Origin: an uncultured Clostridia bacterium | GTDB lineage: Bacteria > Acidobacteriota > Aminicenantia > UBA2199 | Assembly (NCBI GenBank): GCA_964457225.1 | Contig: CAYWEM010000001.1 | Location: 317,957 to 381,956 of the forward strand | DNA length: 64,000 nt | Direction of reading: 5' to 3' | In this document: piece by piece, positions 14,415-60,105 of the stretch | How positions within the stretch are numbered: position 1 is the first letter of the stretch | How the letters are laid out: every line of letters starts with the position of its first letter | Made by a program: the position numbers and the translations under genes | Notes under the pieces: generated by a model | The model's database searches: none | What the model saw: the letters and a program-made list of their open reading frames with translations, nothing else | Told to the model about the DNA's origin: nothing

Positions 14415-14498
14415 GAAAAGCACCTCCATGTTTAAAATGGGAGGGATGTTTTTACGGTCCCGCCTCTCCCTCCGAAAGGAAGACCTTTGGGGTTTTCG

Positions 14499-14638
14499 GG
14501 CAGGTTTTCCGGCTCACAGATCATCCTCCGGGTCCGCCTTCCCGTCTGAAAGACAGTGGCATTAAGGACCCTTCGTCCCTGTTCACGGCTGCGGGGGCAG
14601 CGATGGTTTCGACCACACTTCCCTGACACCCGATAACC
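14499..14638 (-). ncRNA. cobalamin riboswitch
   Basis: Minus strand shows AGGGAA...GCTGCCCCCGCAGCCGTGA, GCCACTG...GGGAAGG (B12 box) and GAGCCGGAAAACCTGCC, directly upstream of the TonB receptor. Confidence 0.92.
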
Positions 14639-14644
14639 GCCGGC

Positions 14645-14673
14645 AATATAACACGCTCCCTTCAGCCTGTCAA
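14645..14673 (-). promoter_or_regulatory. sigma70 promoter driving the riboswitch-btuB leader
   Basis: TTGACA-N17-TATATT; the predicted TSS (about 14638) coincides with the riboswitch 5' end. Confidence 0.75.
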
Positions 14674-34573: not shown

Positions 34574-34963
34574 ATGCTGAGCATCCTGTTTCTGCTGCTG
34601 ACGGTGACCGAGCATTACCTGCTCATGCAGCCGATTGAGGAAGTGCTCTGGCAGAGAAACCAAGCCAGCCTGGCAGCCATCTGCCAGGAGAAACTGACGG
34701 TGGAACTGGAAGAACCCTTCGCCATTTCCGGCCATTTACCCCGAAGATACTTCGCCTTCCTCTTCCATGAACGCTATGATTCTCTTAAACTGATCCGGAT
34801 TGAATGGGGTTCCCTGCACATTGAAGACGAAATTGCCCTGCAATCACTGAACGTCATGCTTGACCACCGGGTCTCCGGGCAGACCATTGCCTACAAGTTC
34901 ATTTTTTTCATGAAAAAGGATCAGGAATGGAAACTGTTCCATCTCCGCGGCATGCGCTTCTGA
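34574..34963 (+). CDS. small exported hypothetical protein, possibly NTF2-like fold
   Basis: Hydrophobic N-terminus, C-terminal FMKKDQEWKLFHL; ATG after AAGGA. Confidence 0.6.
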   Translation: MLSILFLLLTVTEHYLLMQPIEEVLWQRNQASLAAICQEKLTVELEEPFAISGHLPRRYFAFLFHERYDSLKLIRIEWGSLHIEDEIALQSLNVMLDHRVSGQTIAYKFIFFMKKDQEWKLFHLRGMRF

Positions 34964-37900
34964 AAACAACCGCGGCCGCGTTGCTGATCACCGCTTTGAT
35001 CGGTTTCTTCTACCAGACCAGCCTGCGCCGGCTGCAAACACAGGATTCCCTGCAGACCATTGACCGCCAACTGAAGCGGGTTGAGCGCAAAATGCAGTTC
35101 AAGGCGGAAAAACTTCGGGCCCGTGCAACCCGGCTTCATGAAGCCAGGCTGAAAAATCGACTGAACGAACGGCTTAATTCCCGCGAAGCCCTGATCGTTG
35201 AAGATTACGGAGTCATCTTCGAATACTGGGGCGAAGTTCTACTGGTCGATTTCCCGGATCTGCCCCTGAATCACTGGTCTTTGGCAAAAAAAGGACAGGA
35301 GGTCTTCTTCACTCTGCGCCTGGAAGAGCATCTCTACTACAGTTCGCATTTTTTCACCCTGGAAAACGATGCCCTGTTCAATGACCTGGAAAAACTGCCG
35401 GCAACCCTGGACTGGTACTTTTCGAGTTCGCCCCTGGAAAGAACTGCCGAGCCTCAGCTGGAAACCTCGGACAACCGCGTCATCTATCCCCACAACTTTG
35501 CCGCGGCCAATCACCAGCTGGCCTTAACCCTGGCTTTTGATCCGCAGGAGTTTTCCGCCTTCGTCCGTTTCCGTTCCGCCTCGGTTTTCGCCTGGCTGCT
35601 GGCCCTGCTGGCCGCAACAGCGCTGGTGCCGGCCGCAAGACGTTTTTTACAAATCCCCGGGCAAGCAACTGTTCCGGCGGCGGTCCTGCTCTCCATAGCC
35701 TTGCTCTTTCTGCTGCAGAGAACGGAAGGCAACCTGTCCCTGCCCGGAGGCCTGTTTCCCCTCAATTCGACCTTTGCCCTGCTGGCCGTTCTTTTCCCGC
35801 TGCTGGTCGTTTTAACCAGGTTCCTCCGTCAGGAAAAGCCGGCAAAAACCTGGATATCACTGCTCTCTTTCAACTTCCTGCTGATTGTTGCCCTGTTCTT
35901 TCAACAAATCCTTTTAAACAACCTGCTGTTTGCCAGTTCCACTTTTACCATCAACCCGGATTATCTCAGCCTGGTTCTCCTGCTCCTGTTGCTGTACTAC
36001 CTGCCCCTGAGATTGACCCTGCCCCGGCTGAAACCGGTAAAAGACTGGAAAACAGTCATTTTTTTCTTTTCGTTCCAGGCCATCGGCGCCTTGACATGTC
36101 ATTTCCTGGTGTGGGGCGATCCGGTCGCCTTCATGCTCATTTCTCTGCTGCTGCTGGCCGGATTTTTCCTGAAAAAGAAACTCGGCCTGATTTTGCTCTT
36201 ACTGGGGACACTGGCTTTTCTGCTTACCTGGCAGCTGCACCTGAACGCCGGCCGGGACCGTGACTCCTTTATCAGCGAAAACCTGCGCCGGGTGATTCTG
36301 AGCCAGGGACATTACGCCAAGCTCATCGCCAGGGAAATACTGTACGAAGTCAACACCAGGCAGGGGGAACTGCACACCCTGTTCGTCGGAGATCGGCAGC
36401 ATTCACTTACCGACATCTGGAAGCGCAGCCTGGCCGGCAGGCTGGGCATTCCTTCGGGCATATTCGTACTGAATCCCGCCGGCGAAGTGCTGTCCAGTTT
36501 CAGCAACCGCATCCCCTACGTGGCTTTTGAAAAAAGAGACCTGCTTCCATTCTGGCATATCGAGGAGATCAGCGCCGATCTTTACGGCCGCGAGTACACC
36601 ATGGCCGCGGCTTCGATCGACATCTTTCACCAGGCGGTTCACCTGGGTCGGATCATGATCCAGGTGCCGAATTCGCCGGAAGTCTACAGTGGGGAAGAAC
36701 GGGAATACTCGATTTTCTCAGCCAACCCGAAAGCCGCAGCCGCCCGGATCGGCTACCTGAAAATGGATGAATCAGGCCGCATTCGCGAAAACCCCTTCAA
36801 CCTGACCATAGACAGCCTGGACATGACCAAGCTGGCCGATGGCCAATGGTTTCGTTTTCAGCACCTGGGCAGCCCTCTGCGGGGGCTTTTCTGCCGCGGC
36901 AGTGAATCCATCCTGATCATCTTTCACCCCCTGGTTAACCCTTTCCAGCTTTTTTCCACCTTCATCCTGCTGCTGTTGTTCATTTCCATTCCCCTGCTGC
37001 TCGATCTCGGGGGCCTGCCCGTCGGAGTTCCCTGGCGGTTGTTCTATCATTCTTTCTCGGTAAAAGTCTTTTTAATTCTGATCCTGATTTCCCTGCTGAC
37101 CGCATCCACTTTTTCTCTGTTCACCCTGAATTACAACCGCTTGGAGCAGGAAAGAAGAAACACCCGCATCTCCCATGAACGGGGCATGATCGCCAGGAAC
37201 ATTGCCGGAAGTATCTTTGCCGGCGGTTATGAAATCCGGCCGGAAGACCTGTTTTTCCTGTCCCGTATTCTGGAAACCGATGTCCATCTCTATAAAAACG
37301 GAATTCTGCTTTTCAGTTCCAACCCCCTGACCGTTGAATCCGGCCGAATTCCACTCTACCTTCATTCGGATATTCTGCGCAAACTGAACCGGGAAAACCG
37401 GGAAATGGAAATATCAACCAACGGTGCTTCGCTTGACCTGTTTTTTGCCGTCAACGGGGATTTGATTTTCCAACTGGCCGGGATATCAGAAAACAGTGAA
37501 CGCCTGCCCCGGCTTGACCTGCTCGGAGATTTCCTTATTTCCCTGTTTTTCCTGCTGGGCCTGGTCGGTACTGCGGCGGCCCTGTTCTTCCGCAGGAAAA
37601 TCATCGCCCCGATAGATGAACTCAACAAAAGCATGCTGGCCGCGGAAAAAGGAGTGCTGGAACCGCTGGGGCATATGCCCAGGGAAGTGGAACTGCAGAG
37701 CCTTTACCAGGGTTTCAACGCCATGATCTCGGGCATCAGGGAACAGAAACGCAGCACGGCCGAAATATCACGCATGAAAACCCTGATAAACCTGAGTTCC
37801 CGGGTGGCCCACGAGATAAAGAATCCCCTGACGCCCATCCAGTTGTCGGCTGAACAGATCGAAAAAGCGGTCAGCGACGCCAAGCCCGGTTTCACGGAAA

Positions 37901-38448
37901 TGGTACGCAAGGCAGTGGCATTCATCGTTGAAGAAACCAACCACCTGCGCCGGGTGGCCCACGGTTTTCTCGACCTGGCCAAAATAGAAACACTCAAGAG
38001 TGAACCATACGACCTGCCCGAGCTCTGCCGGGAAGAAGTGGCCGGCCTGGCTCCGCTTTTCCCCCAGGTTGAATTCAAGCTCAGCACCCCTGAGGAACTG
38101 GTCCTGAAAGGTGACCGGGTCAAGGTCAAGCAGGCCCTGAAAAACCTGCTGGTTAATTCCCTGGAAGCCTTGGGTGACCGCCGGGGTGTGATAGAACTGG
38201 AAGTGCGGGAACAGGGCGAGCAAGTCGGCGTAAAGGTCAGCGACGACGGCCCGGGTTTTTCTTGTCCCGAGGAAGGCGAAGCCGGCGACCTTGATTTCAC
38301 TTCAGCCAAGGAAGGAGGCAGCGGCCTCGGTCTTTTCATCGTCAGGCGAATCTGCGAACTGCACGGCGGCAGGTTGCTGATCGAGGCCGGTCCCGGCCTG
38401 GGATGCAGCATCACCATGATCCTGAACAAAAATGTTACGCAAGCCTGA
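34927..38448 (+). CDS. large multi-pass NtrY-like sensor histidine kinase (HAMP-HisKA-HATPase)
   Basis: H-box VAHEIKNPLTPI, N-box NLLVNS, DDGPG, GSGLGL; many TM segments. Confidence 0.9.
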   Translation: METVPSPRHALLKTTAAALLITALIGFFYQTSLRRLQTQDSLQTIDRQLKRVERKMQFKAEKLRARATRLHEARLKNRLNERLNSREALIVEDYGVIFEYWGEVLLVDFPDLPLNHWSLAKKGQEVFFTLRLEEHLYYSSHFFTLENDALFNDLEKLPATLDWYFSSSPLERTAEPQLETSDNRVIYPHNFAAANHQLALTLAFDPQEFSAFVRFRSASVFAWLLALLAATALVPAARRFLQIPGQATVPAAVLLSIALLFLLQRTEGNLSLPGGLFPLNSTFALLAVLFPLLVVLTRFLRQEKPAKTWISLLSFNFLLIVALFFQQILLNNLLFASSTFTINPDYLSLVLLLLLLYYLPLRLTLPRLKPVKDWKTVIFFFSFQAIGALTCHFLVWGDPVAFMLISLLLLAGFFLKKKLGLILLLLGTLAFLLTWQLHLNAGRDRDSFISENLRRVILSQGHYAKLIAREILYEVNTRQGELHTLFVGDRQHSLTDIWKRSLAGRLGIPSGIFVLNPAGEVLSSFSNRIPYVAFEKRDLLPFWHIEEISADLYGREYTMAAASIDIFHQAVHLGRIMIQVPNSPEVYSGEEREYSIFSANPKAAAARIGYLKMDESGRIRENPFNLTIDSLDMTKLADGQWFRFQHLGSPLRGLFCRGSESILIIFHPLVNPFQLFSTFILLLLFISIPLLLDLGGLPVGVPWRLFYHSFSVKVFLILILISLLTASTFSLFTLNYNRLEQERRNTRISHERGMIARNIAGSIFAGGYEIRPEDLFFLSRILETDVHLYKNGILLFSSNPLTVESGRIPLYLHSDILRKLNRENREMEISTNGASLDLFFAVNGDLIFQLAGISENSERLPRLDLLGDFLISLFFLLGLVGTAAALFFRRKIIAPIDELNKSMLAAEKGVLEPLGHMPREVELQSLYQGFNAMISGIREQKRSTAEISRMKTLINLSSRVAHEIKNPLTPIQLSAEQIEKAVSDAKPGFTEMVRKAVAFIVEETNHLRRVAHGFLDLAKIETLKSEPYDLPELCREEVAGLAPLFPQVEFKLSTPEELVLKGDRVKVKQALKNLLVNSLEALGDRRGVIELEVREQGEQVGVKVSDDGPGFSCPEEGEAGDLDFTSAKEGGSGLGLFIVRRICELHGGRLLIEAGPGLGCSITMILNKNVTQA

Positions 38449-40734: not shown

Positions 40735-40797
40735 TTTTTCCCGGAACTCCGAAGCAATCTCCGGGGCAGAACCGGGGTTCTTTGCCCAAGAGAAACC

Positions 40798-40826
40798 TTG
40801 ACAATAAAACTCGGTCTTCCTACAAT
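40798..40826 (+). promoter_or_regulatory. near-consensus sigma70 promoter of the kinase-Hsp70 operon
   Basis: TTGACA-N17-TACAAT. Confidence 0.8.
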
Positions 40827-40970: not shown

Positions 40971-42257
40971 ATGACACCGGGAAAAACAGGCGGAACCGAA
41001 AGCTTTGAAATAGTGGAAATGCTCGGAGCCGGGGGCTTCGCCCAGACCTGGCTGGCCCGGGTGCTGGACCGTGACCTGATCAGGGAATGGGGCACCGACC
41101 TGGTGGCCCTTAAAATCCCCCTGGACAAGGAAAAGGCCCGCGTCCTGCAGAAAGAACTGGTCCTGACCGGCAGTCTGCACCTGCAGCTGCGCAAGCTTGA
41201 ATCCAGGCACCTGGTCAGGTATTACGGTTTCGAGGTATTCCAGGGCAAAGCGGTGATGGTCATGGAGTACATCAGCGGCGGCTGCCTGAGAAACCTGCTG
41301 GGGAAAATCGGCCGGCAGAAAGCAATGCGGCCCGAACAGGTGAAACCGATCATCCAGGGGATTGTCTCCGGACTCGAGGCAATCCACAGGAAAAGGATCA
41401 TTCACCGTGACATCAAGCCGGAAAACATACTGATGGACGGCCTGGTGCCGAAAATCACCGATCTTGGGGTCGGCCGGATGCTGCAGCCGGACGAAATGGC
41501 CTTGACCGCGGTGGGCACGCTTTTCTACCTGCCGCCCGAATTGGCCCTGGGCCACCCGGCCACCTACAACGTCGATTTCTGGCCCCTGGGCGTGATGCTG
41601 TTCGAAATGCTCTTCGGCTGTTTTCCCTTCGGAATAAGTCCCGAAATGCCGCCGGGCCGCATGCTGAGCATCATAGTCGATGAAAAAATCAATCTGGTCC
41701 TGCCGCCCCTGGAAGGCCTGCCCGATTGTTTCCGCACCCTTTTACCACGCCTGCTGGAAAGGAATCCCCAGAAAAGAATCAAGCGGGCCGGGGAAATCCT
41801 GGATTTACTGGACGACAAGGCTGGATCAGTTTCAGCCCCGGCAGATCGGCATGTTGACGTGGAAAACGAAATCGAGGAACTGACCAGGCTGATGAAGAAC
41901 CAGGCTGATCCCGAGAGCGTAAAAAAAAGACTGGCCGACCTGATCGAAAGTCACCCGGATCAGGCCCGGATTTTTTTACTGGCCGGGCAGTTCTTTACCA
42001 GGATCAACCACCCGGAAAGGGCCCTGGAGTTGTTTGCCCGGGCGGCCGAGTTATCGCCCGGTTCAGCACTGCCTTTATGGGAATGCGCCGTGGCTTACGA
42101 CCAACTTGGGAAACCGGCCCAGGGCCTGGACTGCCTGAACAAAGCACTGGCCATCGGACTCGATCCGGGCCGGGAAAAAGTCGCCCGCTCCCTGCAAAAA
42201 AAGCTCCAGGCAAAAGTAAAGAATAAACCCGAAACTGAACCGGCACAAGGAGGATGA
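40971..42257 (+). CDS. Hanks-type Ser/Thr kinase with C-terminal TPRs, no TM segment
   Basis: LGAGGFA, VALK, HRDIKPEN, DLG, GTLFYLPPE, DFWPLG; TPR-like C-terminus. Confidence 0.93.
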   Translation: MTPGKTGGTESFEIVEMLGAGGFAQTWLARVLDRDLIREWGTDLVALKIPLDKEKARVLQKELVLTGSLHLQLRKLESRHLVRYYGFEVFQGKAVMVMEYISGGCLRNLLGKIGRQKAMRPEQVKPIIQGIVSGLEAIHRKRIIHRDIKPENILMDGLVPKITDLGVGRMLQPDEMALTAVGTLFYLPPELALGHPATYNVDFWPLGVMLFEMLFGCFPFGISPEMPPGRMLSIIVDEKINLVLPPLEGLPDCFRTLLPRLLERNPQKRIKRAGEILDLLDDKAGSVSAPADRHVDVENEIEELTRLMKNQADPESVKKRLADLIESHPDQARIFLLAGQFFTRINHPERALELFARAAELSPGSALPLWECAVAYDQLGKPAQGLDCLNKALAIGLDPGREKVARSLQKKLQAKVKNKPETEPAQGG

Positions 42258-42259
42258 AA

Positions 42260-44677
42260 ATGGGACGAATTATCGGTATCGACCTGGGAACGACCAACTC
42301 CGTGATGGCCACCGTCGGCGAAGGCGGTCCCAGAATCATTCAGAACCGGGAAAACGAGGACAAGACTCTCTCGATCGTTTCTTTTCACAAGGGTGAACTG
42401 CTGGTGGGCACGCCGGCCTTCCAGCGCTGGCTTATCAACCCCAGGGAAACGGTCGTTTCCATAAAACGCCTGATCGGACGGGGATTCAACGACCCTGAAG
42501 TACAGCGTTTCAAGGCCGGGGACAAGGGTAAGGAATGGATCAAGTATGAAATCGTTCAGCCTCCGGACGGTACCGCGGACAGCCTGCGGGTCGTACTGGG
42601 CGGCAATCACTATTCCCCGGTTGAAATTTCGGCCCGGATCCTGGAAAAAATGAAAAAAGACGCCGAATACGTGCTGGGTGAAGAAGTCAGTCACGCGGTT
42701 ATAACCGTCCCCGCCTATTTCAGTGACAAACAGCGCAACGCCACCCGTGAAGCCGGATTGAAAGCCGGTCTCAAGGTCATGAAGATTCTCGATGAACCGA
42801 CCGCGGCCGCGGTGGCCTACGGGATAGAAGATCATCAGGGTGAACCGAAAACCATCCTGGTCTTTGATCTCGGGGGCGGCACCCTGGATATTTCCGTGTT
42901 GATGATGGCTTCCGGAGCCTTTTCCCCGCTGAACCTGGAAGGCGACATGTGGCTGGGCGGGGATGATTTCGATGAAATCATCGTCAGCCATGTTCTGGCC
43001 GAGATAAAAAGTAAGTACGGACTTGAACCCAGGTCGGACACCCGCTTCATGGCCGCCTTGAAAAAAGAAGCACAGCGGGCCAAGGAAACTCTCAGCTCGG
43101 CGGCCGCGACTGACGTCATTCTGGCCGGCCAGCTCCGGGATGATTCCGGAGAACCGCTGGACATCGAGGTGGAAATCACCCGTACCCGTTTCGATGAAAT
43201 GATCCGCCCCCTTATCGACAAGATGCGCAAAATGATTGAAAAAGCCGTCATCAATGCCAATTTTGAATTCAACGACATCGACCACGTGCTGATGGCCGGC
43301 AATTCCACCGCGGTACCGGCCATTCAGGTCCTGATGGAACAGTTGTTCGGCAAGGAAAAAATCCTGCGCGCCGTCCACCCCAAGCACAGTGTGGCTATCG
43401 GGGCGGCCGTCACCGCGGCCCTGTTGCAGGCGGTCAACTGTCCGACCTGCGGTCACAACAACCCTCTCGATGCGGGCAACTGCGAAAAATGCGCCACCGA
43501 GCTGGTAATAAACCGCTCCAGGAAATGCCCGGCCTGCGGCCGTGAAAACCCTGAATCAGCCGAGAAATGCCGCGACTGCAACACTCCTTTTTTTGAACTC
43601 GAGGGACTCAAGGGCGGAATCGCGCCCTTTCACTACGGAGTGGCCACCGCTGACGACAAGTTCCACATCTTCATCAGCAAGGGCGATCCTTTCGAAACCC
43701 CGGAAGAAAAAAGAATCGTTCAGACTTTTTACACTCATTATCCCAACCAGAGAGTCATCTGCGTTCCGGTTTACGGGGGTGATCACCTGGAAAAGGCCAG
43801 TTTGAACGTCAAGCAGGGCGAGGTTTTTTCAGTACTGCCCCGGGGTTTCCCGGAAAAAACCCCGGTCAAGGTCAAGCTCTGGCTGGATCATGACGGTTCC
43901 TTCGTGGTCGACAACTTCCTGGACGAGGCTCATGACCTGGAAGACCTGATGCTGAGAGGCGAAGAAGATCAGAAAGTAGTCGAATTGCTGACCGCGGCCG
44001 AAGAGAAGTTCCATGCCAGGAAGGATCAACTGGCCCCGAACGTGCTGGCCGAGCTGGAAAGCAAGCGCGACCAGGTCCTGGACAAACTGGATCGCAAGGA
44101 ATTCAGCGCGGCCGGCGCGGCGGCGGCCCAATTACTGCAGGCTGTAGAAAACGCCGGAGCTCCGGACCTGATGAAGAAAGCTGAAAACATTATCTCAAAC
44201 ATAAACTATTACGTTCAGCGTTATTCCTGGTTAATGCAGGCCGATGGCCTGTCCTTGTCCTCCAAGGTTGAGGAACTGAAATCAGCAGTTTCTGGCGGAA
44301 ACCGGCAATTAATTGAAAACAAAATCAACGAGCTTGATACCGCCTTTAATTTGTGCCAGGAAAAAAACCAGCTTCTAAAAGTCCTGGTCAGCATTAACCA
44401 GGCGATTGTAAGCATCGTCCACCCGGTCGACGCCCTGCAGGCCGGAGAATTACTGCGTGAATTCGAACAGATCGAAGCCGGCCTTAAAAACAACGACCTT
44501 TCAGCCCAGTCCCGTTTCGCCGCCTTTATGTTAAAACTGAATGCCGCCCTGCAATCCTGCCTGCAAAAAGGCGGCGGAAAAACCAGCCCCTGCCGATCCT
44601 GCGGCCAGGCCAACCCGATCGGCGCCCGGAACTGCAAAGCCTGCGGTGCGGATCTCTGGGGACTGGTCAGCCTGTAA
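42260..44677 (+). CDS. non-canonical Hsp70-family protein with three zinc ribbons
   Basis: GIDLGTTNS, SIKRLIGR, TVPAYF, DEPTAAA, DLGGGTLD, LGGDDFD; six CxxC motifs. ATG 42260 is 6 nt after AAGGAGG (alternative 42254). Confidence 0.93.
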   Translation: MGRIIGIDLGTTNSVMATVGEGGPRIIQNRENEDKTLSIVSFHKGELLVGTPAFQRWLINPRETVVSIKRLIGRGFNDPEVQRFKAGDKGKEWIKYEIVQPPDGTADSLRVVLGGNHYSPVEISARILEKMKKDAEYVLGEEVSHAVITVPAYFSDKQRNATREAGLKAGLKVMKILDEPTAAAVAYGIEDHQGEPKTILVFDLGGGTLDISVLMMASGAFSPLNLEGDMWLGGDDFDEIIVSHVLAEIKSKYGLEPRSDTRFMAALKKEAQRAKETLSSAAATDVILAGQLRDDSGEPLDIEVEITRTRFDEMIRPLIDKMRKMIEKAVINANFEFNDIDHVLMAGNSTAVPAIQVLMEQLFGKEKILRAVHPKHSVAIGAAVTAALLQAVNCPTCGHNNPLDAGNCEKCATELVINRSRKCPACGRENPESAEKCRDCNTPFFELEGLKGGIAPFHYGVATADDKFHIFISKGDPFETPEEKRIVQTFYTHYPNQRVICVPVYGGDHLEKASLNVKQGEVFSVLPRGFPEKTPVKVKLWLDHDGSFVVDNFLDEAHDLEDLMLRGEEDQKVVELLTAAEEKFHARKDQLAPNVLAELESKRDQVLDKLDRKEFSAAGAAAAQLLQAVENAGAPDLMKKAENIISNINYYVQRYSWLMQADGLSLSSKVEELKSAVSGGNRQLIENKINELDTAFNLCQEKNQLLKVLVSINQAIVSIVHPVDALQAGELLREFEQIEAGLKNNDLSAQSRFAAFMLKLNAALQSCLQKGGGKTSPCRSCGQANPIGARNCKACGADLWGLVSL

Positions 44678-44689
44678 GGTTTCCCGAGC

Positions 44690-47017
44690 ATGAAAGATCC
44701 GCTGCAGCTCTCTGAAAACGCTTACGAGGTACTGCTGATCGATCCGGACGGATTGGTTGACAACCAGCTGGTGGCCCGGCAGTTCAAACTGAAAGAGGTT
44801 TTCACCAGGAAAAACGCCCGGGAAGCCCGGAATACCCTGGTCAATCCTTTGAGCCGGGCCCTGGTCGACGTTTTCATTTTCGAAAACCGTTTCCTGGCTA
44901 AGCTTTCAGAAAAAATCTGCCGGGAGCCACAACTGCTGGTCAGCCGGCGCGGAGATATCCGCCGGGGCCTGGAAAACAAGCTGACCGAGATGTTTCCCTA
45001 TTATCCCTGTATCTACACCCTGGCGGTCCTCAGTTACTGGGAGGCGGTTTATCTCGAAGAAAAACGCTGGGCCGGGCTGGAACAAGCGGATTTCCCCCAA
45101 CCAGCCGGCCTGGGACAATTAATTGAACTTGAAAAAGCCTGGACGGACACCGTTCTTTACTGGGCCGCCCTGATCAACAGCAAAGATTTCTGGCTGGAAT
45201 GGCTGGAACTGAAAAAGGAAAACGGACTGCTGCTGGATCAAGGACATGACATTCCCAAGCTGCAGCAAGCGATCAGTGATCACCTGGGCAAACAGATAAA
45301 CAGCTACTCGGAAAGATACCGATTGGCCGGCAGGCAGGCGGAAGCACTTTTTTTCAGCGATTCCTCTGCAAAGCTGAGTAATGAAATCCGCAGCGGCTCT
45401 GTCCTGGCCGCCCTTGAGATCAGGGAGAGCTTCGGTTCCCGCTCCTACCTTTTTGCCTGCGGCCCCGGACTGCTGCAGAAATACAGTCAAATCGAGAAGG
45501 TAAAAAACGCTATCCGGGCGGCCAGGCTAAAGCAACCGCAAAACCAGGATCTGCAGGAGCTGGAAAAAGCACTTTCCCCCCTGGCCGGGATTTACGACCT
45601 GCTGAAAGAGGGCAAGCTGGACCGGGCCAAAGAGGAATTGAACAAAATAGATCCGGCCGCGGTCGATGATTCCGAATTGAATTCATGCCGGATGAACCTG
45701 GCTTTTAAACAGGGCAGCCAGGCTTTCAGCGTGGGCCGGGAGGAAGATGGTTTTCAATTCTGGAAAGAATGCTTATATCACGGTCAGCTCAATGACGAGC
45801 AAAAGGCCGGGATTTCCAGGCTGGTCCTGGAAAAGGTAAAGTCTCTCCAGCTGCATGAACCGCAAAAAGCGATAAGCATGCTGGAAAGAGTCCTGAACAT
45901 CTTCCCGGACCGGGAAATGTCCGGCAACCTTTCCCTGTTACTGATGCAACGCGGCATCGGGGCTTATAACAATGGTATCCAGGAAATAGACGGACTTTTT
46001 CAGCATATTCATCAATCAGGTTCTCTCAGCTGGCCTGATGACGGTCCATTCAAGGCGAGTAACTTCCTGCAGGCCTCGGAAAACTCCATCAACGATCTGA
46101 CAAAAGCGCTTTCCCTGGACCCCGGCAACCAGAAAATAATGCAGGAACTCCATAGCATAAAATCCGGCTTGCAGAACATCGGCAAAACCCTGATAAAACT
46201 ATCCATACAAAACCAGGATTATCAGATTGCCGACAACACTGTCATGGTTATAATCCGCCAGGGACTTAGTGACCCGGAATTTGAACAACTATGCCATGAA
46301 GTCGAATACAACCGCAAGTTTATGCCCTGGATGCCCAAACCTTTCAGCCCGGGAGCACCAGTCAAGCAGGTAAAACAAAAAAAAATCTCTTCGGAAAAGC
46401 TGCCCGACCTGATCGACCGGGAAAAGTGCTTTTTCTGCCTGGGAGAAAAGAACGACGGCCGGGAAAACGCAAGGCTGGAACTGGATTTTCATAAAACCAT
46501 CAGTAATGATGAAAACCTGCTGCATTGGCAGTCCCAAAAACTGTTCGTTTCCCGCTGCCCGAAATGCGCCGAAGTACACCAGGCCAAGAAAGAGAAAAAA
46601 GATCCTTTGGCCGAGGCCAAGGGCGAAGCCGCCGGCTGCGGCTGCCTGGCCTTCATCTTCAACGGCATCATCCTTTACTTCCTGGTTTACCTGTTCGTTG
46701 ACTTTCACAGGCTCTTCGGCATGCATCCGGCTTTTATCGGAGTCACCGGCTTGATCTCTCTCCTGACCGCCATGGGTATAATTTTCATCGTGAAAAGAAT
46801 ACCGCGGAACGGCGACCCGGCCCGGAAAAAAGCCATGGCCGACTTCATGAAACTCGGAAATCACCGGATGCTGAGCTTTGCCGAAGTGACCCGCCGTTAC
46901 GAATGGTACCTGAACACCACCGCGGATGAACAATCCTGGAAAAAACACGCCCTGGCAGCTGATATCGTCAGAAAAGGTTTTTCTACCGGTCTCAGGCCGC
47001 CCGAGGCGGGATTGTAA
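44690..47017 (+). CDS. membrane-anchored protein: J-like N-terminus without HPD, helical/TPR-like repeats, CxxC-CxxC finger, two TM helices
   Basis: NAYEVLLI...AREARNTLVNPLSRALVD; CFFC...CPKC; two hydrophobic segments at about 46640-46795. Confidence 0.75.
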   Translation: MKDPLQLSENAYEVLLIDPDGLVDNQLVARQFKLKEVFTRKNAREARNTLVNPLSRALVDVFIFENRFLAKLSEKICREPQLLVSRRGDIRRGLENKLTEMFPYYPCIYTLAVLSYWEAVYLEEKRWAGLEQADFPQPAGLGQLIELEKAWTDTVLYWAALINSKDFWLEWLELKKENGLLLDQGHDIPKLQQAISDHLGKQINSYSERYRLAGRQAEALFFSDSSAKLSNEIRSGSVLAALEIRESFGSRSYLFACGPGLLQKYSQIEKVKNAIRAARLKQPQNQDLQELEKALSPLAGIYDLLKEGKLDRAKEELNKIDPAAVDDSELNSCRMNLAFKQGSQAFSVGREEDGFQFWKECLYHGQLNDEQKAGISRLVLEKVKSLQLHEPQKAISMLERVLNIFPDREMSGNLSLLLMQRGIGAYNNGIQEIDGLFQHIHQSGSLSWPDDGPFKASNFLQASENSINDLTKALSLDPGNQKIMQELHSIKSGLQNIGKTLIKLSIQNQDYQIADNTVMVIIRQGLSDPEFEQLCHEVEYNRKFMPWMPKPFSPGAPVKQVKQKKISSEKLPDLIDREKCFFCLGEKNDGRENARLELDFHKTISNDENLLHWQSQKLFVSRCPKCAEVHQAKKEKKDPLAEAKGEAAGCGCLAFIFNGIILYFLVYLFVDFHRLFGMHPAFIGVTGLISLLTAMGIIFIVKRIPRNGDPARKKAMADFMKLGNHRMLSFAEVTRRYEWYLNTTADEQSWKKHALAADIVRKGFSTGLRPPEAGL

Positions 47018-48028: not shown

Positions 48029-48503
48029 CGAACTCCCCGAAAAACTTCATAAGGCTTACGCCAGGGCGGCAGCCCTGTGCGCGGCCAGGGAATACTGCGC
48101 TTTTGACCTGGCCCGCAAATTGAAATCCTGGGGGCTGTCTGAAGAGGAATCTGCACAGGCACTCTCCCGGTTGGAAACCGAGGGTTTCCTGGACGAGGAG
48201 CGTTATGCCCGGGCTTTCGTCCAGGACAAAACCCGCTTCAACGGCTGGGGACGGCGCAAGATAGACTCCATGCTGGCCGCCAGGCAAATCAGCCCGCAGG
48301 CCCGCGAAGCGGCCTTTGCCGGTCTGCCGGAGGATTCCTTTCAAACCCGGCTGTTCAAACTGCTTCAGGACAAGGCAAACCGTTTGGCAAAACTGGAACC
48401 CGGCCTGCGCCGCCGGCGCCTGATCGCCTTCGGCCTGGGCCGGGGCTATTCCCTGAACGAAATCGAGAACGTGCTGGACGAACTGGCCATTCCGGAAGAA
48501 TGA
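48012..48503 (+). CDS. recX: RecX regulatory protein; probable non-canonical start (ATT 48012)
   Basis: FLDEERYARAFVQDK..FNGWGRRKI and FGLGRGYS. The frame is open upstream of the track start (TTG 48120) and encodes the RecX helix ARAAALCAAREYC. Confidence 0.85.
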   Translation: MSSKNNELPEKLHKAYARAAALCAAREYCAFDLARKLKSWGLSEEESAQALSRLETEGFLDEERYARAFVQDKTRFNGWGRRKIDSMLAARQISPQAREAAFAGLPEDSFQTRLFKLLQDKANRLAKLEPGLRRRRLIAFGLGRGYSLNEIENVLDELAIPEE

Positions 48504-48647
48504 ACGATGTTGAGCATTCAGCGGATATACCGATCCGCCCCGCTAGTAATCAAGAATTAATATGTCCACTTTCGGCGGCTTGCTTTTTTTTTACTTAAAC
48601 TGTAAATACCAAGGGTACGCTGGTTGGTTTTCGGTCAGGAGGCCGGC

Positions 48648-51600
48648 ATGATTAAAAAGAACAGGCCAGGAGGGGAAATAATCAAGCCGGGCCGGGCCGG
48701 GAACAGGCGTTTGAAAGAAAAATCAGCCGATTTCCATGAAACCAAAGAGAAACTCCAGGCCAGCGAAGAGCGAATTCGTTCCATATTGCAGATAATTCCG
48801 GACATCATAATCGAGCTGAATGCCGAGGGTGAATACCTGGCCGTGCATACCGCCGCTGACGAGCTTCTGATCAAGTCCAGGCAAGAGATGATCGGCAATA
48901 AAATCAGCGACATCATGCCGTCGGAATCCGCCGAAGTGTTTTTACAGGGACTCCGGCGGGCCATCCGTACCGGGAATTTACAATCAGTTGAATACGAACT
49001 GCAGGTCCAGGCGGGTAAAAGGTATTTCGAAGCGCGCCTGGTGGCCCAGGGCCGGGAAAGGGCCCTGGCTTTCATCCGGGATATCAGCGAACGAAAACTG
49101 GCTGAAGAAAGCTTGCGCGAAAGTGAAGAAAAACATCGCCTGCTTTTTGAAACCATGTCTCCCGGGGTCATATACCAGGAAGCCGATGGCCGGATAACTT
49201 CAGCAAATCCCTCGGCTGAAAGAATACTTGGCCTGTCACTGTCTCAGATGCAGGGCAAGACTTCCATGGATCCGCGCTGGAAGATGATCGATGAAAACGG
49301 CGTTCCGGTGCCAGGTTCCGAGCATCCGGCCATGATAGCGCTGAAAACGGGCCGCAAGACGGGCCCATTGACCAGGGCGGTTTACATTCCCGAAAAAGAC
49401 GATTACGTCTGGCTTTCGATCACCGCCATCCCCCTGTTCCGGCCCGGGGCCGCCAAACCACATCAGGTTTATGCGACTTTCGATGACATCAGCGAGCGCC
49501 GGCGGGCCGAGGCTGAACTGCTGGAAAGCAACCGACGGCTTGAATCATTCCTGGAAATCAGCCGGAGAATAACTTCGTCCACGGAACAATCTGAGATCAT
49601 GCAGTTGATAGTCGACCATGCCACCAGGGTCATGAACATCGACAGCGGCGCGGTTTACCTGCTGAACGATCAGGGGATGCTTCATCTGGAGGCCACGACT
49701 CCGGCTCTTCCGGAGAACTTTCCGGAGGAAATGCGTGCAGCTGTTTTAGACGACCATCCGCATATAAAAAAAGCCGCCAGTACAGGCCTGCACGTCGTCA
49801 TGCCCGATATCCGGACCGCTGATTTATCTCCGGCCGAAAAAAGCGTAGTCAATTTAAGAAACCTGCGTTCAAACCTATATCTGCCCATTCGTCTCAGGGG
49901 TTTATCAATCGGGGTTTTGATACTGTCATCAATAGAAAACAAATACGATTTCTCAGAGGAAGCCATAATACTGCTCCGGGGCTTTGCCGACCAGGCCGCC
50001 CAGATAATCGACAACCTGCGCAATTACCAGCAGATCAGGGAACAAACCCGGGTCCTGGAACAGGAAATCATTGATCGGGAACAGGCCGAGGCAGCCCTGC
50101 GCGAGAGCGAGAATCGTATCAAGAGTATTTTCCGGACTGCGCCCATCGGGATCGGCATGGTTTCCAACCGCATCCTGAAAGAGGCCAATCCCCGGCTTTG
50201 CCAGATCTCCGGCTATTCTCAAGCTGAGCTGATCGACCGTTCGGCCAGAATGCTCTACCCTGATGATGAGGAATTCGAATACGTGGGGCGTGAAAAATAC
50301 CGGCAAATCAGCGAACAGGGCACTGGAACAGTCGAGACGAAATGGAAGCGCAAAGACGGCGTCTTGATAAACGTATTGCTCAGCTCGACCCCCATTGACC
50401 TGAACGACCTGTCCAGGGGGGTCACTTTCACCGCCCTGGACATAACCGCCAGCAAGCAGGCCGAAGAGGAACGTGAGAAACTCCAGTCTCAACTGACCCA
50501 GGCCCAGAAAATGGAATCAGTGGGCCGACTGGCCGGGGGCATTGCCCATGACTTCAACAACATGCTTTCCGTAATCCTGGGCCGGGCCGAGCTGGCCCTG
50601 GATTTAGTCCGGGAAAATGAGCCGCTTCACGCCGGCCTGAAAGAAATCCAGAAAGCGGCCCGGCACTCGGCTGACCTGACCCGCCAGTTGCTGGCCTTCG
50701 CCCGCAGGCAGACCATAACCCCCAGAGTGCTTGACCTCAATTCAAATCTGGCCGAAATGCTCAGCATGCTCAAGCGGCTGGTCGGAGAAAACATCGCCAT
50801 CGAATGGAAACCCGGCCGTGATATCTGGCCGGTCAAGATGGACCCGGCCCAGCTGAACCAGATAATAGCCAATCTCTGTGTCAATTCCAGGGATGCCATC
50901 GACGATACAGGCAGAATATCGATCGAAACAAGCAACTGCACCTTTGACCGGGAATACTGCAGCCGAAATCCGGACTTTCTTTCCGGAGATTTCGTCCGCC
51001 TGACGGTCGGAGATAACGGCTGCGGCATGGATGAACAGACCCTCAGCCATCTTTTCGAACCGTTTTTCACCACCAAGGAAGTCGGGCAGGGCACCGGCCT
51101 GGGCCTGGCCACCATTTACGGCGCAGTCAGGCAGAACCAGGGTTTCATCATAGTAAACAGTGAGCCGGGCCGGGGCACGAGCTTCAGCATTTACCTGCCT
51201 CGGCACCAGCTTGAATCAGTTGCTCCGCAAAGGACGGAAACAAGTAGAATGGAGCTCAACGGCAGCGGAACAATTCTTCTGGTGGAAGACGAACCGGCCA
51301 TCCTCAGCATGACCAAAATGATGCTGGAGCAGCTTGGGTACTCCGTGCTGGCCGCCCACACGCCGGTTGAGGCCATGCGCCTGGCTGAAAAATTCCCGGG
51401 GTCAATCGATCTGCTGATGACCGACGTGATCATGCCGGAAATGAACGGCCGCAAACTGGCCGCCAACCTGCAGGCCGTTTACCCGGACCTGGCCTGCCTG
51501 TTCATGTCGGGCTACACCGCCGATGTTATAGCCGATCACGGCGTACTCGCCGCGGGCGTGCATTTTATCCAAAAACCGTTTTCCATAAAGGATCTTGGAC

Positions 51601-51665
51601 AAATCGTACACCAAGCACTTCAGAGGGATAGGAGAATGAATCATGAAAACACTGATAGTCGATGA
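48648..51665 (+). CDS. cytoplasmic hybrid histidine kinase (PAS-PAS-GAF-PAS-HisKA-HATPase-REC)
   Basis: [38 protein letters not shown]...[13 protein letters not shown]; ATG after AGGAGG. Confidence 0.93.
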
Positions 51666-55473: not shown

Positions 55474-56028
55474 CTATGTAGAGGCATCCTCGGCTTTGGC
55501 CTGCTTGAGATAGCGCTCCAGGATCAGGGGCACCTGGTCGGAGGTAACGTCGCCGTGGACCTCCTCCCCCACCATGACCACAGGCGCCAGGCCGCAGGTT
55601 CCGACGCAGCGGGAAGCCTCAAGAGTAAAGAGACCGTCCTTGCTGGTTTCTCCGAACCCGATTCCTAACTCCTCCTCGAAACGGGTGACCACCCCCTCGG
55701 CCCCCTTGACGTAGCAGGCGGTTCCAATGCAGACCGAGATGCGAAAACGCCCCACCGGCTGCAAGCGGAAATAGTGGTAGAAGGACGCAACCCCAGAGAC
55801 CTTGGCGGCGGGTACCTGGAGAAGCTGCGCCACGGCATCGAGCTGGGGAACTCCCAGGTACCCGAAGTGGCCCTGCACCCGGTGGAGCACCTCAATGAGG
55901 TTGCTCTCGGAGCGGGGTCGGGTGCGGCAATCCTCGATGAAGGCGACGATATCCGGGGTGAGGACCGCAGCGGCCGCGGCGCTCACGGCCGGCCAGTTAT
56001 CATTGTTTCTGCAGGAGTGATGGCTCAT
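55474..56028 (-). CDS. hydC: [FeFe]-hydrogenase NuoE-like 2Fe-2S subunit (HydC/HndA)
   Basis: VCIGTACYVKGA and CVGTCGLAPVV; last gene of the hyd operon. Confidence 0.88.
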   Translation of the reverse strand: MSHHSCRNNDNWPAVSAAAAAVLTPDIVAFIEDCRTRPRSESNLIEVLHRVQGHFGYLGVPQLDAVAQLLQVPAAKVSGVASFYHYFRLQPVGRFRISVCIGTACYVKGAEGVVTRFEEELGIGFGETSKDGLFTLEASRCVGTCGLAPVVMVGEEVHGDVTSDQVPLILERYLKQAKAEDAST

Positions 56029-57785
56029 CGGACACCTCGCGGCAATTTGGGAGTGTAGCTTGTATGCAGCAGGTCATGGGCCTTGTCGCCGCCAGGTTCA
56101 CCCAGAAAACGCTGGAACAGCTCCTTTACGGCGGGGTTTTCGTGGGAGCGGCGCAGTTTCTTGGTAGCGTCGATCTGGTAGAGGGCCTGGGCGCGCTGGC
56201 GCAGCACCTGATGATCCAGAGCGTGTTCCACCCCGGGTGGATAGGGCTGGCCGCCGCCGCCGATGCAGCCGCCGGGACAGGCCATGACCTCTATGACGTG
56301 GAACTCCTCCTCGCCCCGGGAGACCTTGTCCAGCAGCTTGCGGGCGTGCCGCAAACTATTGGCCACCCCGACCCGCAGCAGGCGGCCTGCCAGGGCCACA
56401 TCCACGGTCTTGATCCCACCCACGGCGCGAACCTCCGGGAACTCGAGCCGTTCGGGCTCCTTGCCCGTGAGCAGGGCGGCCGCTGTGCGCAGGGTGGCCT
56501 CCATGACACCGCCGGTAGTGCCGAAGATGTCTCCGGCGCCGCTGGCCAGGCCCAGGGGTGCGTCGTACTCGCCGTCCGGGAGGGAGACCAGGTCTATGCC
56601 CCAGCACTTGATCATCCAGGCCAGTTCACGGGTGGTGAGCACAGCGTCGGTGGTGGGGGTGCCGTCCGGCAACCGGTGCTCGGGCCGGGCGGCCTCGAAT
56701 TTCTTGGCGGTGCAGGGCATGACGGCAACCACGAATATCTTCTCCACCGGCACTTTGACCTGCTGCGCCCAGTAGGTCTTGATCAGGGTGGACATCATGC
56801 TCATGGGAGACTTGCAGGTGGAGGCATTGGGGATCAGCTCGGGGTAGAACTTCTCCAGAAAGGATATCCAACCGGGCGAGCAGGAGGTGATGATGGGCAG
56901 CGGACCGCCCTCCTCCAGCCGCCTGATGAGTTCATGGGCCTCCTCGACAATGGTCAGGTCGGCGCCCAGGTCAGTATCAAAGACCTGGTCGAACCCCAGA
57001 CGCCTCAGAGCAGTGATCATGCGGCCGGTGACCGGGGTACCCGGCGGCAAGCCGAAGGCCTCGCCCAACGTCGCCCGGATGGCTGGCGCCGTCTGCACCA
57101 ACACCACCTTGTCAGGGTCGGCCAGGGCGGCCCAGACCGGCTCGGTGGCGGGTTTCTCCAGAAAGGCAGCAGTGGGGCAGACGTTGACGCACTGCCCGCA
57201 CTGGATGCAGACCGAATCGTCCATTTTGGCGCCGTGGGCCGGCGTGACAACAGTTGTGAAACCCCTCCGGTGCTGGGAAAGATTATAGACACCCTGGACC
57301 TCGTCGCAAACCCGGACGCAGCGCCCGCAAAGAATGCACTTGTCCGGCTCACGCAGCACCGCCACCGACGAGTCGTCGATGGGAAAGTGCTTGCGTTTGC
57401 CTTCAAAGAGTCGTTCCCGCACGCCGTGGCGCCAGGCCACCTTCTGCAGTTCGCAGTTGCCGTCGCGTTCACAGGTCTGGCAGTCCATGGGGTGGTTGTC
57501 CAGGATCAGCTCAATGATATCACGCCTTGCCTGGCGTATGACCGGTGAGTTGGTGTTCACCCTCATCCCGTCCCATACCTTCTGCGAACAGGCCGCCATG
57601 TAATAATCCATGCCCTCCACTTCCACGATGCACACCCGGCAGGCACCGGCGATGGAGAGGTCGGGGTGGTAACACAACCGCGGAATGTTGATATTGAGTT
57701 CCTCGGCAGCAGCCATGATGGTGGTGCCGGCCGGCACCTCCAGTGGTGTGTCGTCGATCCAGATTGATACTTTCTTCTCGCTCAT
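56025..57785 (-). CDS. hydA: [FeFe]-hydrogenase catalytic subunit, group A
   Basis: H-cluster motifs TSCSPGW, MPCTAKKFE, EVMACPGGCIGGGGQP; accessory 2Fe-2S, His-ligated and 2x[4Fe-4S] sites. Confidence 0.95.
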   Translation of the reverse strand: MSEKKVSIWIDDTPLEVPAGTTIMAAAEELNINIPRLCYHPDLSIAGACRVCIVEVEGMDYYMAACSQKVWDGMRVNTNSPVIRQARRDIIELILDNHPMDCQTCERDGNCELQKVAWRHGVRERLFEGKRKHFPIDDSSVAVLREPDKCILCGRCVRVCDEVQGVYNLSQHRRGFTTVVTPAHGAKMDDSVCIQCGQCVNVCPTAAFLEKPATEPVWAALADPDKVVLVQTAPAIRATLGEAFGLPPGTPVTGRMITALRRLGFDQVFDTDLGADLTIVEEAHELIRRLEEGGPLPIITSCSPGWISFLEKFYPELIPNASTCKSPMSMMSTLIKTYWAQQVKVPVEKIFVVAVMPCTAKKFEAARPEHRLPDGTPTTDAVLTTRELAWMIKCWGIDLVSLPDGEYDAPLGLASGAGDIFGTTGGVMEATLRTAAALLTGKEPERLEFPEVRAVGGIKTVDVALAGRLLRVGVANSLRHARKLLDKVSRGEEEFHVIEVMACPGGCIGGGGQPYPPGVEHALDHQVLRQRAQALYQIDATKKLRRSHENPAVKELFQRFLGEPGGDKAHDLLHTSYTPKLPRGVR

Positions 57786-57795
57786 GGCCGCCCCC

Positions 57796-59964: not shown

Positions 59965-60105
59965 CAGGTTTATCTCCTCGCCATCATTGTCATCAATCGA
60001 GCAACGCAGGTGTTTGGTGTGCAAGAAACATTAAAGACGTCAGGGTTAAAGGCAATTGAAGGTATCTGCTTTTCTGACAGGAAATTCAATATCAGCCATT
60101 TTATG

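Follow-up and report, generated by a model that had tools for sequence, protein, structure and literature searches.

How does an Hsp70 chaperone couple its two domains when zinc ribbons are set at the junction between them? This question is raised by a gene in a 64,000-nucleotide stretch of DNA, here called the window, from an uncultured Clostridia bacterium (GTDB lineage Acidobacteriota; Aminicenantia; UBA2199), which corresponds to positions 317,957 to 381,956 of contig CAYWEM010000001.1 in GenBank assembly GCA_964457225.1. The gene encodes an Hsp70-family protein in which a first-pass annotation had placed a double zinc ribbon between the nucleotide-binding domain (NBD) and a segment, GIAPFHYGV, resembling a substrate-binding domain (SBD). 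The annotation held that the ribbons stood where the interdomain linker should be, that the linker was absent, and that allostery was rewired. We examined the protein, its relatives, and its neighboring genes with these claims in mind.

The double zinc ribbon itself was borne out by reading of the sequence and by the Pfam DZR model (PF12773), which matched residues 396 to 443 over its full length (E = 1.7e-9; 38.1 bits versus a cutoff of 27.3). The coordinates given for it, 43439 to 43579, were exact, with the C396 codon starting at the first of these positions and the C442 codon ending at the second. The sequence passes from ...VAIGAAVTAALLQAVN, in the last NBD helix (...VAIGAAVTAALLQ392), through C396-P-T-C399...C410-E-K-C413 and C425-P-A-C428...C439-R-D-C442 to NTPFFELEGLKG-GIAPFHYGV. 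Together with a further ribbon near the C terminus, the protein has 12 ribbon cysteines in three CxxC...CxxC centers, two of them at the allosteric hinge. The Pfam HSP70 match covered residues 6 to 393, which correspond to profile positions 1 to 377 of 599, i.e., the NBD only. In the NCBIfam search, the DnaK and HscA matches were below threshold and also limited to the NBD, and the HscC-specific model gave no match. The NBD is approximately 40% identical to DnaK NBDs (PDB match, E = 4e-86), and the equivalents of D8, T11 to T13, K70, P143, E171, D194, T199, and D201 (DnaK numbering) were invariant in 64 family members. Judged from these residues, the ATPase is catalytically complete.

We then compared the region behind the ribbons with DnaK, using a residue map taken from the HMMER profile alignment; its NBD positions agreed with those of a mafft --add alignment. 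No linker motif of the DVLLLD type (DnaK residues 388 to 393) was found in the window protein, and to this extent the linker is indeed missing. However, a degenerate linker, L449 to I456, is retained after the ribbons. In the hmmalign register, L449-E-G-L452-K453-G454-G455-I456 corresponds to DnaK K387-D-V389-L390-L391-L392-D393-V394, eight residues against eight as aligned by the profile. The family consensus for this segment is x-h-h-G-G-I, in which two moderately hydrophobic positions are followed by Gly-Gly-Ile, and the family profile V-v-k-G-G-I-A-P-F-s-Y-G-i-q-T aligns with DnaK V-V/L-L-L-D-V-T-P-L-S-L-G-I-E-T. The ribbons follow the last NBD helix, at approximately T383/G384 of DnaK, and precede this segment. 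They are thus inserted, as an exposed loop, ahead of the linker and not in its stead, and a linker does stand beside the ribbons, in degenerate rather than conventional form.

The alignment continued beyond the linker. Against PDB DnaK chains, the family profile matched in two domains, the NBD at E of about 1e-130 and the SBD-beta plus lid at independent E values of 1.3e-9 and 4.1e-9. P458 and G462 are the hmmalign equivalents of DnaK P396 and G400, and in the substrate pocket F492, I502, and V504 are those of F426, V436, and I438. K476, D547, and F550 correspond to K414, D481, and L484. An AlphaFold2 model built from a 64-sequence alignment had a mean predicted local distance difference test score (pLDDT) of 89.3 and a predicted template-modeling score (pTM) of 0.78. 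It comprised the NBD (residues 1 to 391), the ribbons (393 to 445) at pLDDT 60 to 75, with residues 419 to 422 below 50, eight beta strands at 460 to 567 with pLDDT near 90, lid helices at 571 to 773, and the C-terminal ribbon. The modeled lid of about 200 residues is roughly twice as long as that of DnaK. In a Foldseek search against the PDB, the best matches were domain-docked DnaK (7kzu) and AMPylated or AMP-PNP-bound BiP (6eob, 5o4p, and 6zmd). The NBD and SBD-beta superposed together on these docked states with target-normalized TM scores of 0.85 to 0.87 and a root-mean-square deviation of about 4 Å over about 575 columns, compared with TM scores of only 0.57 to 0.67 for the undocked states 2kho, 1yuw, and 2v7y. 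Because the profile alignment and the structural comparison agree, the domain behind the ribbons is, by alignment and model, a genuine Hsp70 SBD, and the ribbons lie before a retained linker rather than replacing it. Alignment to DnaK and structure prediction, both proposed as checks with the annotation, thereby place the insert at the NBD-linker junction of a protein whose predicted state is domain docked and ATP-like, as in DnaK and BiP.

To ask how general this architecture is, we searched 5.8 billion proteins for relatives. The search recovered over 120 that were full length, with approximately 800 residues and 37 to 57% identity; nearly all were metagenomic, and those with names were called only "Hsp70 family protein" or "DnaK." The family-specific C-terminal 362 residues matched 169 representatives at E <= 1e-3 and 113 at E <= 1e-10 among 1.84 billion representatives clustered at 50% identity. 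Carriers include Planctomycetota, Verrucomicrobiota, Contendobacter, and Actinobacteria. The zinc-ribbon Hsp70 family is therefore real and, although found in several phyla, rare. An assembly or frameshift artifact was also rejected, since this architecture recurs in more than 100 relatives. In 115 full-length relatives, the stretch from the NBD to the conserved GGIAPFxYG motif held a constant position; 46 of these relatives had a double ribbon (8 to 10 cysteines), 68 a single ribbon (4 or 5 cysteines), and one, P0110, none. Ribbon 1 was therefore kept in 114 of the 115, and all eight ribbon cysteines were conserved in 46 homologues at only 40 to 57% identity. Retention at this level of divergence indicates that the double ribbon is not a chance arrangement. 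In the 64-sequence alignment, C396, C399, N403, C410, and C413 were at least 90% conserved, as were C780, C794, and C797 of the C-terminal ribbon, and the conserved noncysteine positions of ribbon 1 comprised N403 and the CPxCG and DA motifs. Fifteen further loci, from one genome and from metagenomes, were checked at the junction, and each had a ribbon there. The most divergent of these, L007 from an Anaerolineae metagenome-assembled genome, has eight cysteines at the junction; it was the sole family member found when genome contigs were scanned with the full-length alignment, which otherwise returned mostly canonical DnaK. The ribbon insert is a hallmark of the family.

The second ribbon has a different history. 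On a neighbor-joining tree computed with the insert columns removed, parsimony reconstructed one ribbon for the root. The double ribbon was found mostly in a single clade, and ribbon number had to change six times or more. In single-ribbon members, ribbon 2 is replaced by an acidic spacer of variable length, Pro-rich in some, and the whole insert measures 28 to 77 residues. The single-ribbon clade (e.g., P0040 and P0063) has a first knuckle that is not CxxC but a conserved C-QAPDPxDPxRE-C (C-x11-C). The mean charge of the insert is -1.7 in double-ribbon and -4.1 in single-ribbon members. P0110 lacks the ribbon, yet retains the whole operon described below. The second ribbon thus appears to be a lineage-specific elaboration and not a core requirement.

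Next, we examined the residues by which Hsp70 domains communicate, taking residue roles from Mayer 2021 (PMC8215388), conservation from the 64-member alignment, and DnaK numbering throughout. The catalytic and relay residues K70, P143, and E171 are invariant (the window equivalents include K71 for K70 and P153 for P143), and I168 is conserved. The clamp residues are kept, K414 in 62 of 64 members (window K476) and D481 as Asp in 46 of 64 (window D547), as are the substrate-signal residues I438 (V504), V440 (V506), and L484, which is Phe in 58 of 64 (F550). Less conserved are D148 (D, Q, or E), R151 (R or K), and the D326 equivalent, which is mostly Asn. The face that receives the J-domain is different: E206 is replaced by Met, the D211 loop is deleted, E217 is Ala or Ser, and D477 is Trp in 53 of 64 members. 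Q378 is replaced by a hydrophobic residue, and R167 is Lys or Arg in most members. From these substitutions, the internal NBD-SBD coupling apparatus looks largely intact, and the co-chaperone docking face and the linker appear to be remodeled. The claim of rewired allostery was accordingly too strong, given the retained clamp and signal residues and the docked model; the change lies in the J-docking surface.

The lost docking surface fits the protein encoded directly downstream, which is a cognate J-like partner without the His-Pro-Asp (HPD) motif. The N terminus of this partner family is conserved as M-K-D-P-L-Q-x3-P-Y-E-I-L..., and a profile of seven partner N termini had J-domains as all of its best 32 PDB matches, headed by E. 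coli DnaJ (E = 6.3e-5). HPD was absent from all seven aligned N termini, in which the loop between helices II and III is shortened and variable. The Pfam DnaJ model gave subthreshold matches (E of about 5e-4; 20 bits versus 27.8) in two of the four homologous N termini tested, that of the window protein not being among the two. A word-based homologue search with the 775-residue window partner found only two relatives, and its AlphaFold2 model from the resulting three-sequence alignment had a pLDDT of 53.6, with the J-like region below 50, and was not used. Beyond the J-like region, the sequence reads as helical repeats and a CxxC...CxxC motif, with membrane helices predicted toward the C terminus. 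In a Candidatus Contendobacter relative, the J-like partner (L005, 10724-14971) has 1,415 residues and ends in a YidC/Oxa1-type (60KD_IMP) membrane-insertase domain, which hints that the system acts at the membrane.

The gene neighborhoods were examined in seven long-contig relatives and 17 further loci, annotated with hidden Markov models made from their proteins; some of the 17 come from closely related organisms. In all seven long-contig relatives (the set L001, L003, L005, and L087-L090), a Ser/Thr kinase with TPR and then GrpE lie immediately upstream of the Hsp70. A large protein of 690 to 1,415 residues is encoded downstream or, in one case, a stand-alone 143-residue protein upstream, and PP2C, Clp/ClpB-like AAA+, ClpP, FHA, vWA, and extra kinase genes are often also present. 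Among the further loci, GrpE lies directly upstream in 12 of the 14 with upstream coverage, which makes approximately 19 of 21 relatives overall; the kinase was found in about 11 of 12 and the downstream partner in 12 of 13. Clp-like AAA+ genes occur in eight of the 17 and PP2C in six. Only L097 and L104 lack grpE, as the window does, and partner homologues adjoin the Hsp70 relative in nearly all loci.

Two further features of these loci were recorded. The signature CxxCGxDLWxL of the Hsp70 C terminus recurs as CxxCG[TA]DL[SW]xL in an 89-residue protein (L001, 12533-12802) and at the N terminus of a TPR protein (L089, 10286-11218). A ribbon signature common to several proteins of related operons suggests that ribbons are an interaction module throughout the system, and the motif may be a shared interaction tag; a purely speculative extension, modeled on EEVD, is that TPR domains bind it. 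In addition, a second, shorter Hsp70 paralogue directly follows the ribbon-bearing one in L090 (10417-12252), L103 (10075-12186), and L107 (9106-11511), and the L090 copy carries a SEC-C zinc motif.

In the window, the Hsp70 gene belongs to a module of four genes, whose coordinates are collected in Table 1.

Table 1. Features of the zinc-ribbon Hsp70 gene and of the four-gene module in the window
Feature	Coordinates	Strand	Basis or remark
Promoter-like site, TTGACA-17-TACAAT (11/12)	40798..40826	+	Consensus match only; upstream of kinase gene
Ser/Thr protein kinase with C-terminal TPR, 428 aa	40971..42257	+	Pfam Pkinase, E = 1.3e-41; TPR matches
Hsp70-family gene with zinc ribbons, 807 aa	42254..44677	+	Stop included in coordinates
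NBD, aa 1-392	42254..43429	+	Pfam HSP70, E = 5e-120; catalytic set complete
Zinc ribbon 1 (C396, C399, C410, C413)	43439..43492	+	Pfam DZR
Zinc ribbon 2 (C425, C428, C439, C442)	43526..43579	+	Pfam DZR and Zn_Ribbon_1
Degenerate interdomain linker, aa 446-456, FFELEGLKGGI	43589..43621	+	Profile and hmmalign alignments to DnaK
SBD-beta, aa 457-567	43622..43954	+	Profile match to DnaK SBD; AlphaFold2; Foldseek
Long alpha-helical lid, aa 571-773	43964..44572	+	AlphaFold2 secondary structure; profile alignment runs on into DnaK lid
C-terminal zinc ribbon (C780, C783, C794, C797), then conserved D-L-W	44591..44659	+	Weak Pfam Zn_ribbon_3 match, aa 779-801
Partner protein, 775 aa, with J-like N terminus without HPD (aa ~1-65, nt 44690-44884)	44690..47017	+	Profile of homologous N termini
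Fourth module gene, 325 aa	47051..48028	+	Starts 33 nt after J-like gene

The kinase stop overlaps the Hsp70 start by 4 nucleotides, and the partner gene begins 12 nucleotides downstream of the Hsp70 gene. The position of the promoter-like site fits the start of the module, and a terminator-like hairpin (40759-40777) lies ahead of it, after the preceding gene; promoter-like sites in the region as a whole are no more numerous than expected from shuffled sequence. The 325-residue protein had no match in Pfam, NCBIfam, or PADLOC and no recognizable domain. Neither GrpE nor Clp homologues were found within the 64 kb. A horizontally acquired island was rejected, as the GC content (0.51 to 0.58, with a window mean of about 0.565) shows no clear break. 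A known anti-phage defense system was likewise rejected: in PADLOC-DB v2 neither the Hsp70 nor the 325-residue protein matched a defense model, the kinase had generic kinase-domain matches only, and the J-like protein had one marginal match.

What, then, might the ribbons do? The chaperone would still cycle as an ATP-driven Hsp70. The insert would leave the chain at approximately DnaK residues 384 to 388, directly beside the J-domain site on top of the linker. Because of this insertion point, and because the canonical contacts are replaced on both partners, the ribbons are probably a docking knob. Such a zinc-stabilized knob would give specificity for a dedicated partner, either the HPD-less J-like domain or the kinase/TPR proteins, and would take the place of the canonical electrostatic and HPD contacts. 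Among the roles that the annotation had offered, partner binding fits the operon context best. We give even chances to the proposal that one or both ribbons provide a surface on which the J-like partner or the kinase/TPR proteins specifically dock, on a chaperone that still cycles; the statements on structure and family are much more secure than this role.

Several observations weigh against a docking surface on a cycling chaperone. The ribbons were modeled at a pLDDT of only 60 to 75, and their placement next to the J-site follows from the point of insertion and was not seen in a structure. The window linker, L-E-G-L-K-G-G-I, is less hydrophobic than that of DnaK, and the D148 and D326 equivalents are variable, so coupling may be weaker than in DnaK. 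The ribbon surfaces vary outside the Cys, Asn, and Ala scaffold positions, and a tolerated, nonspecific insertion would also fit; moreover, most of the family has acidic spacers in place of ribbon 2. The window also lacks the GrpE that most relatives have.

Tolerance could be carried further, with the ribbons as a self-folding, zinc-stabilized spacer that lengthens the tether between NBD and linker and binds no ligand. Behind ribbon 1, length does vary greatly, as the 28 to 77 residues of single-ribbon inserts show, and so does composition; P0110 is without a ribbon and still has its whole operon, and ribbon number has changed at least six times on the tree. However, ribbon 1 persists in 114 of 115 relatives across several phyla at 37 to 57% identity, with conserved noncysteine positions, and a C-QAPDPxDPxRE-C knuckle of its own is conserved in the single-ribbon clade. 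Retention of this kind suggests that more than length has been under selection, and we regard a mere spacer as quite unlikely. An unlikely explanation as well, though one with a precedent, is a redox or metal switch, in which oxidation or metal stress would release zinc, unfold the insert, and alter NBD-SBD coupling or expose a holdase surface, as in Hsp33 or Ruc. Twelve ribbon cysteines in three centers, two of them at the hinge, would suit it. Most zinc ribbons are purely structural, however, the family occurs in phyla of very different lifestyles, its conserved operon partners are signaling and unfolding proteins and not redox enzymes, and ribbon 2 is dispensable in most members. The precedent is the four-cysteine zinc ribbon of Ruc, which is activated by oxidation and binds DnaK (PMC7448276). 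Oxidant sensing would also make sense in a host that is probably an anaerobe, as the [FeFe]-hydrogenase encoded in the window indicates.

Alternatively, allostery may be lost, leaving a holdase that binds ATP, or else an exchange factor or scaffold resembling Hsp110, in which hydrolysis is uncoupled from substrate release. Neither the canonical linker motif nor the J-docking residues remain, and the partner has no HPD; linker divergence and lack of stimulation by J-domains are likewise known from Hsp110s, and many bacterial DnaK derivates have modified linkers (PMC13580251). Yet the catalytic residues, the P143/K70 relay, the K414/D481 clamp, and the I438/V440/L484 path are conserved, AlphaFold2 predicts the docked state, and the dedicated GrpE of approximately 19 of 21 relatives implies nucleotide cycling. 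We therefore consider a loss of allostery decidedly improbable. The least credible account is a nucleic-acid module that tethers the chaperone to RNA or DNA, such as ribosomes or transcripts, which the annotation had also entertained. Zinc ribbons occur in many nucleic-acid-binding proteins, and a subthreshold NCBIfam match to ribosomal protein L40e was found (E = 5e-5; 22.6 bits versus a cutoff of 54). This match reflects the Cys pattern only, no nucleic-acid enzymes are conserved in the operon, and the inserts are net acidic in both the double-ribbon and the single-ribbon members, which disfavors nucleic-acid binding, so that we give it hardly any weight, even though other Hsp70-like proteins have been suggested to bind RNA (PMC11090510). 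A bolder version of the docking surface makes the ribbon the activating element of a new co-chaperone coupling. The HPD-less J-like domain would trigger ATP hydrolysis via the ribbon beside the degenerate linker, in place of the HPD-linker-R167 contact; the step would be gated by the operon kinase and PP2C or by oxidation of ribbon thiols, yielding an Hsp70 under signal control that would feed, at the membrane, a Clp-type unfoldase dedicated to it. We think this quite doubtful as a whole.

Other genes of the window were noted in passing. A cobalamin riboswitch (14482-14648, minus strand; Rfam RF00174, 95.9 bits) lies directly upstream of a TonB-dependent receptor gene (12567-14429, minus strand). 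The gene for the [FeFe]-hydrogenase large subunit adjoins one for a NuoF-like flavoprotein with Fe-S domains (56025-60024, minus strand), suggesting an anaerobic host with a hydrogenase of the electron-bifurcating type. Two very large sensor histidine kinases, read from the sequence, flank the module on the plus strand: one of 1,173 residues with many membrane segments (34927-38448) and one of 1,013 residues that reads as PAS repeats, a histidine-kinase core, and a receiver domain (48624-51665). A RecX-like open reading frame occupies 48120-48503.

Full-text literature searches turned up no account of a zinc ribbon at the linker of an Hsp70. Two recent papers on bacterial DnaK paralogues (one of them PMC13580251) do not mention a zinc-ribbon linker insertion. 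The family is thus a so far undescribed subfamily of Hsp70s. Its distinguishing marks are zinc ribbons inserted ahead of a degenerate linker, an elongated lid, a ribbon at the C terminus, and a conserved operon of kinase, J-like protein, GrpE in most cases, and Clp. How J-proteins switch on Hsp70s is commonly described by rules taken to be universal, which involve the HPD motif, the hydrophobic linker, and the acidic docking face. Here, a natural lineage across several phyla keeps the internal allosteric wiring and has all three J-activation elements replaced, with a zinc module set exactly at the switch point and encoded together with a kinase and often a phosphatase and an unfoldase. If the ribbon is a docking or regulatory element, it represents an alternative way to control Hsp70 and opens to experiment a part of the bacterial "DnaK derivate" repertoire that a 2026 review calls unexplored dark matter (PMC13580251). 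Should it prove to be a passive structural insert, a so far unannotated Hsp70 subfamily and its operon would nonetheless have been cleanly delimited.

Compared with known systems, the window protein is an Hsp70 by fold and catalytic machinery that departs from the class in two sequence features, the DVLLLD linker and the J-docking face. It resembles DnaK in its NBD, catalytic residues, homologous SBD-beta and lid, clamp and signal path, and predicted docked state, and most of its relatives share with DnaK a dedicated GrpE. Unlike DnaK, it has an insert of 50 to 60 residues before the linker, x-h-h-G-G-I instead of VLLLDV, a C-terminal ribbon, and a lid of about 200 residues; it lacks E206, D211, E217, and D477, and its operon encodes an HPD-less J-like partner and a Ser/Thr kinase. 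Hsp110 and Grp170, exchange factors derived from Hsp70, are similar in that they have the Hsp70 architecture, a linker that has diverged, and sizeable insertions or extensions. Hsp110, however, is eukaryotic, has its insertions in SBD-beta and the lid and not at the NBD-linker junction, and carries no zinc ribbons. Hsp110 has lost J-domain stimulation (PMC13580251). In the zinc-ribbon family, the clamp and signal residues and the GrpE linkage speak for an Hsp70 that cycles and not for an exchange factor.

The DnaJ zinc-finger domain, the Hsp70 escort protein Hep1/Zim17, and Ruc are small Cys4 zinc modules acting at or together with an Hsp70, and the likeness to them is one of analogy only. Hep1/Zim17 binds the NBD and linker of mitochondrial Hsp70. 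These modules are separate proteins or parts of J-proteins, whereas the ribbons described here lie within the Hsp70 chain, in which the Pfam zf-DNL and DnaJ_CXXCXGXG models had no match. Ruc is a zinc-ribbon protein that binds DnaK (PMC7448276). Noncanonical Hsp70s in multigene systems have been described in NTP-dependent conflict systems (Kaur et al. 2020, PMC7159879) and, as CnuD, in CoCoNuT systems (PMC11090510). These likewise surround the Hsp70 with GrpE, DnaJ/TPR proteins, zinc-ribbon-fused kinases, and vWA and FHA components (PMC7159879, PMC11090510) but are defined by GAP1-N2 or DO GTPases plus tubulin, or by McrBC. As none of these defining genes, McrB and GTPase genes included, appeared in the neighborhoods examined, a CoCoNuT or GTPase-centered conflict system was rejected.

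By analogy, the closest functional counterpart is E. coli HscC with its own J-proteins, DjlB and DjlC. Like the window protein, HscC is a specialized Hsp70 paralogue encoded beside its own J-type partner, and DjlC is membrane anchored, which is comparable to the predicted anchoring of the 775-residue partner. Unlike the window protein, HscC has no zinc ribbons, and its partners are bona fide J-domain proteins; we know of no association of HscC with a kinase, GrpE, or Clp. The HscC lid is shortened (PMC13580251), whereas that of the zinc-ribbon Hsp70 is lengthened. Both proteins lack the NBD loop with D211 near the J-binding site (PMC8215388).

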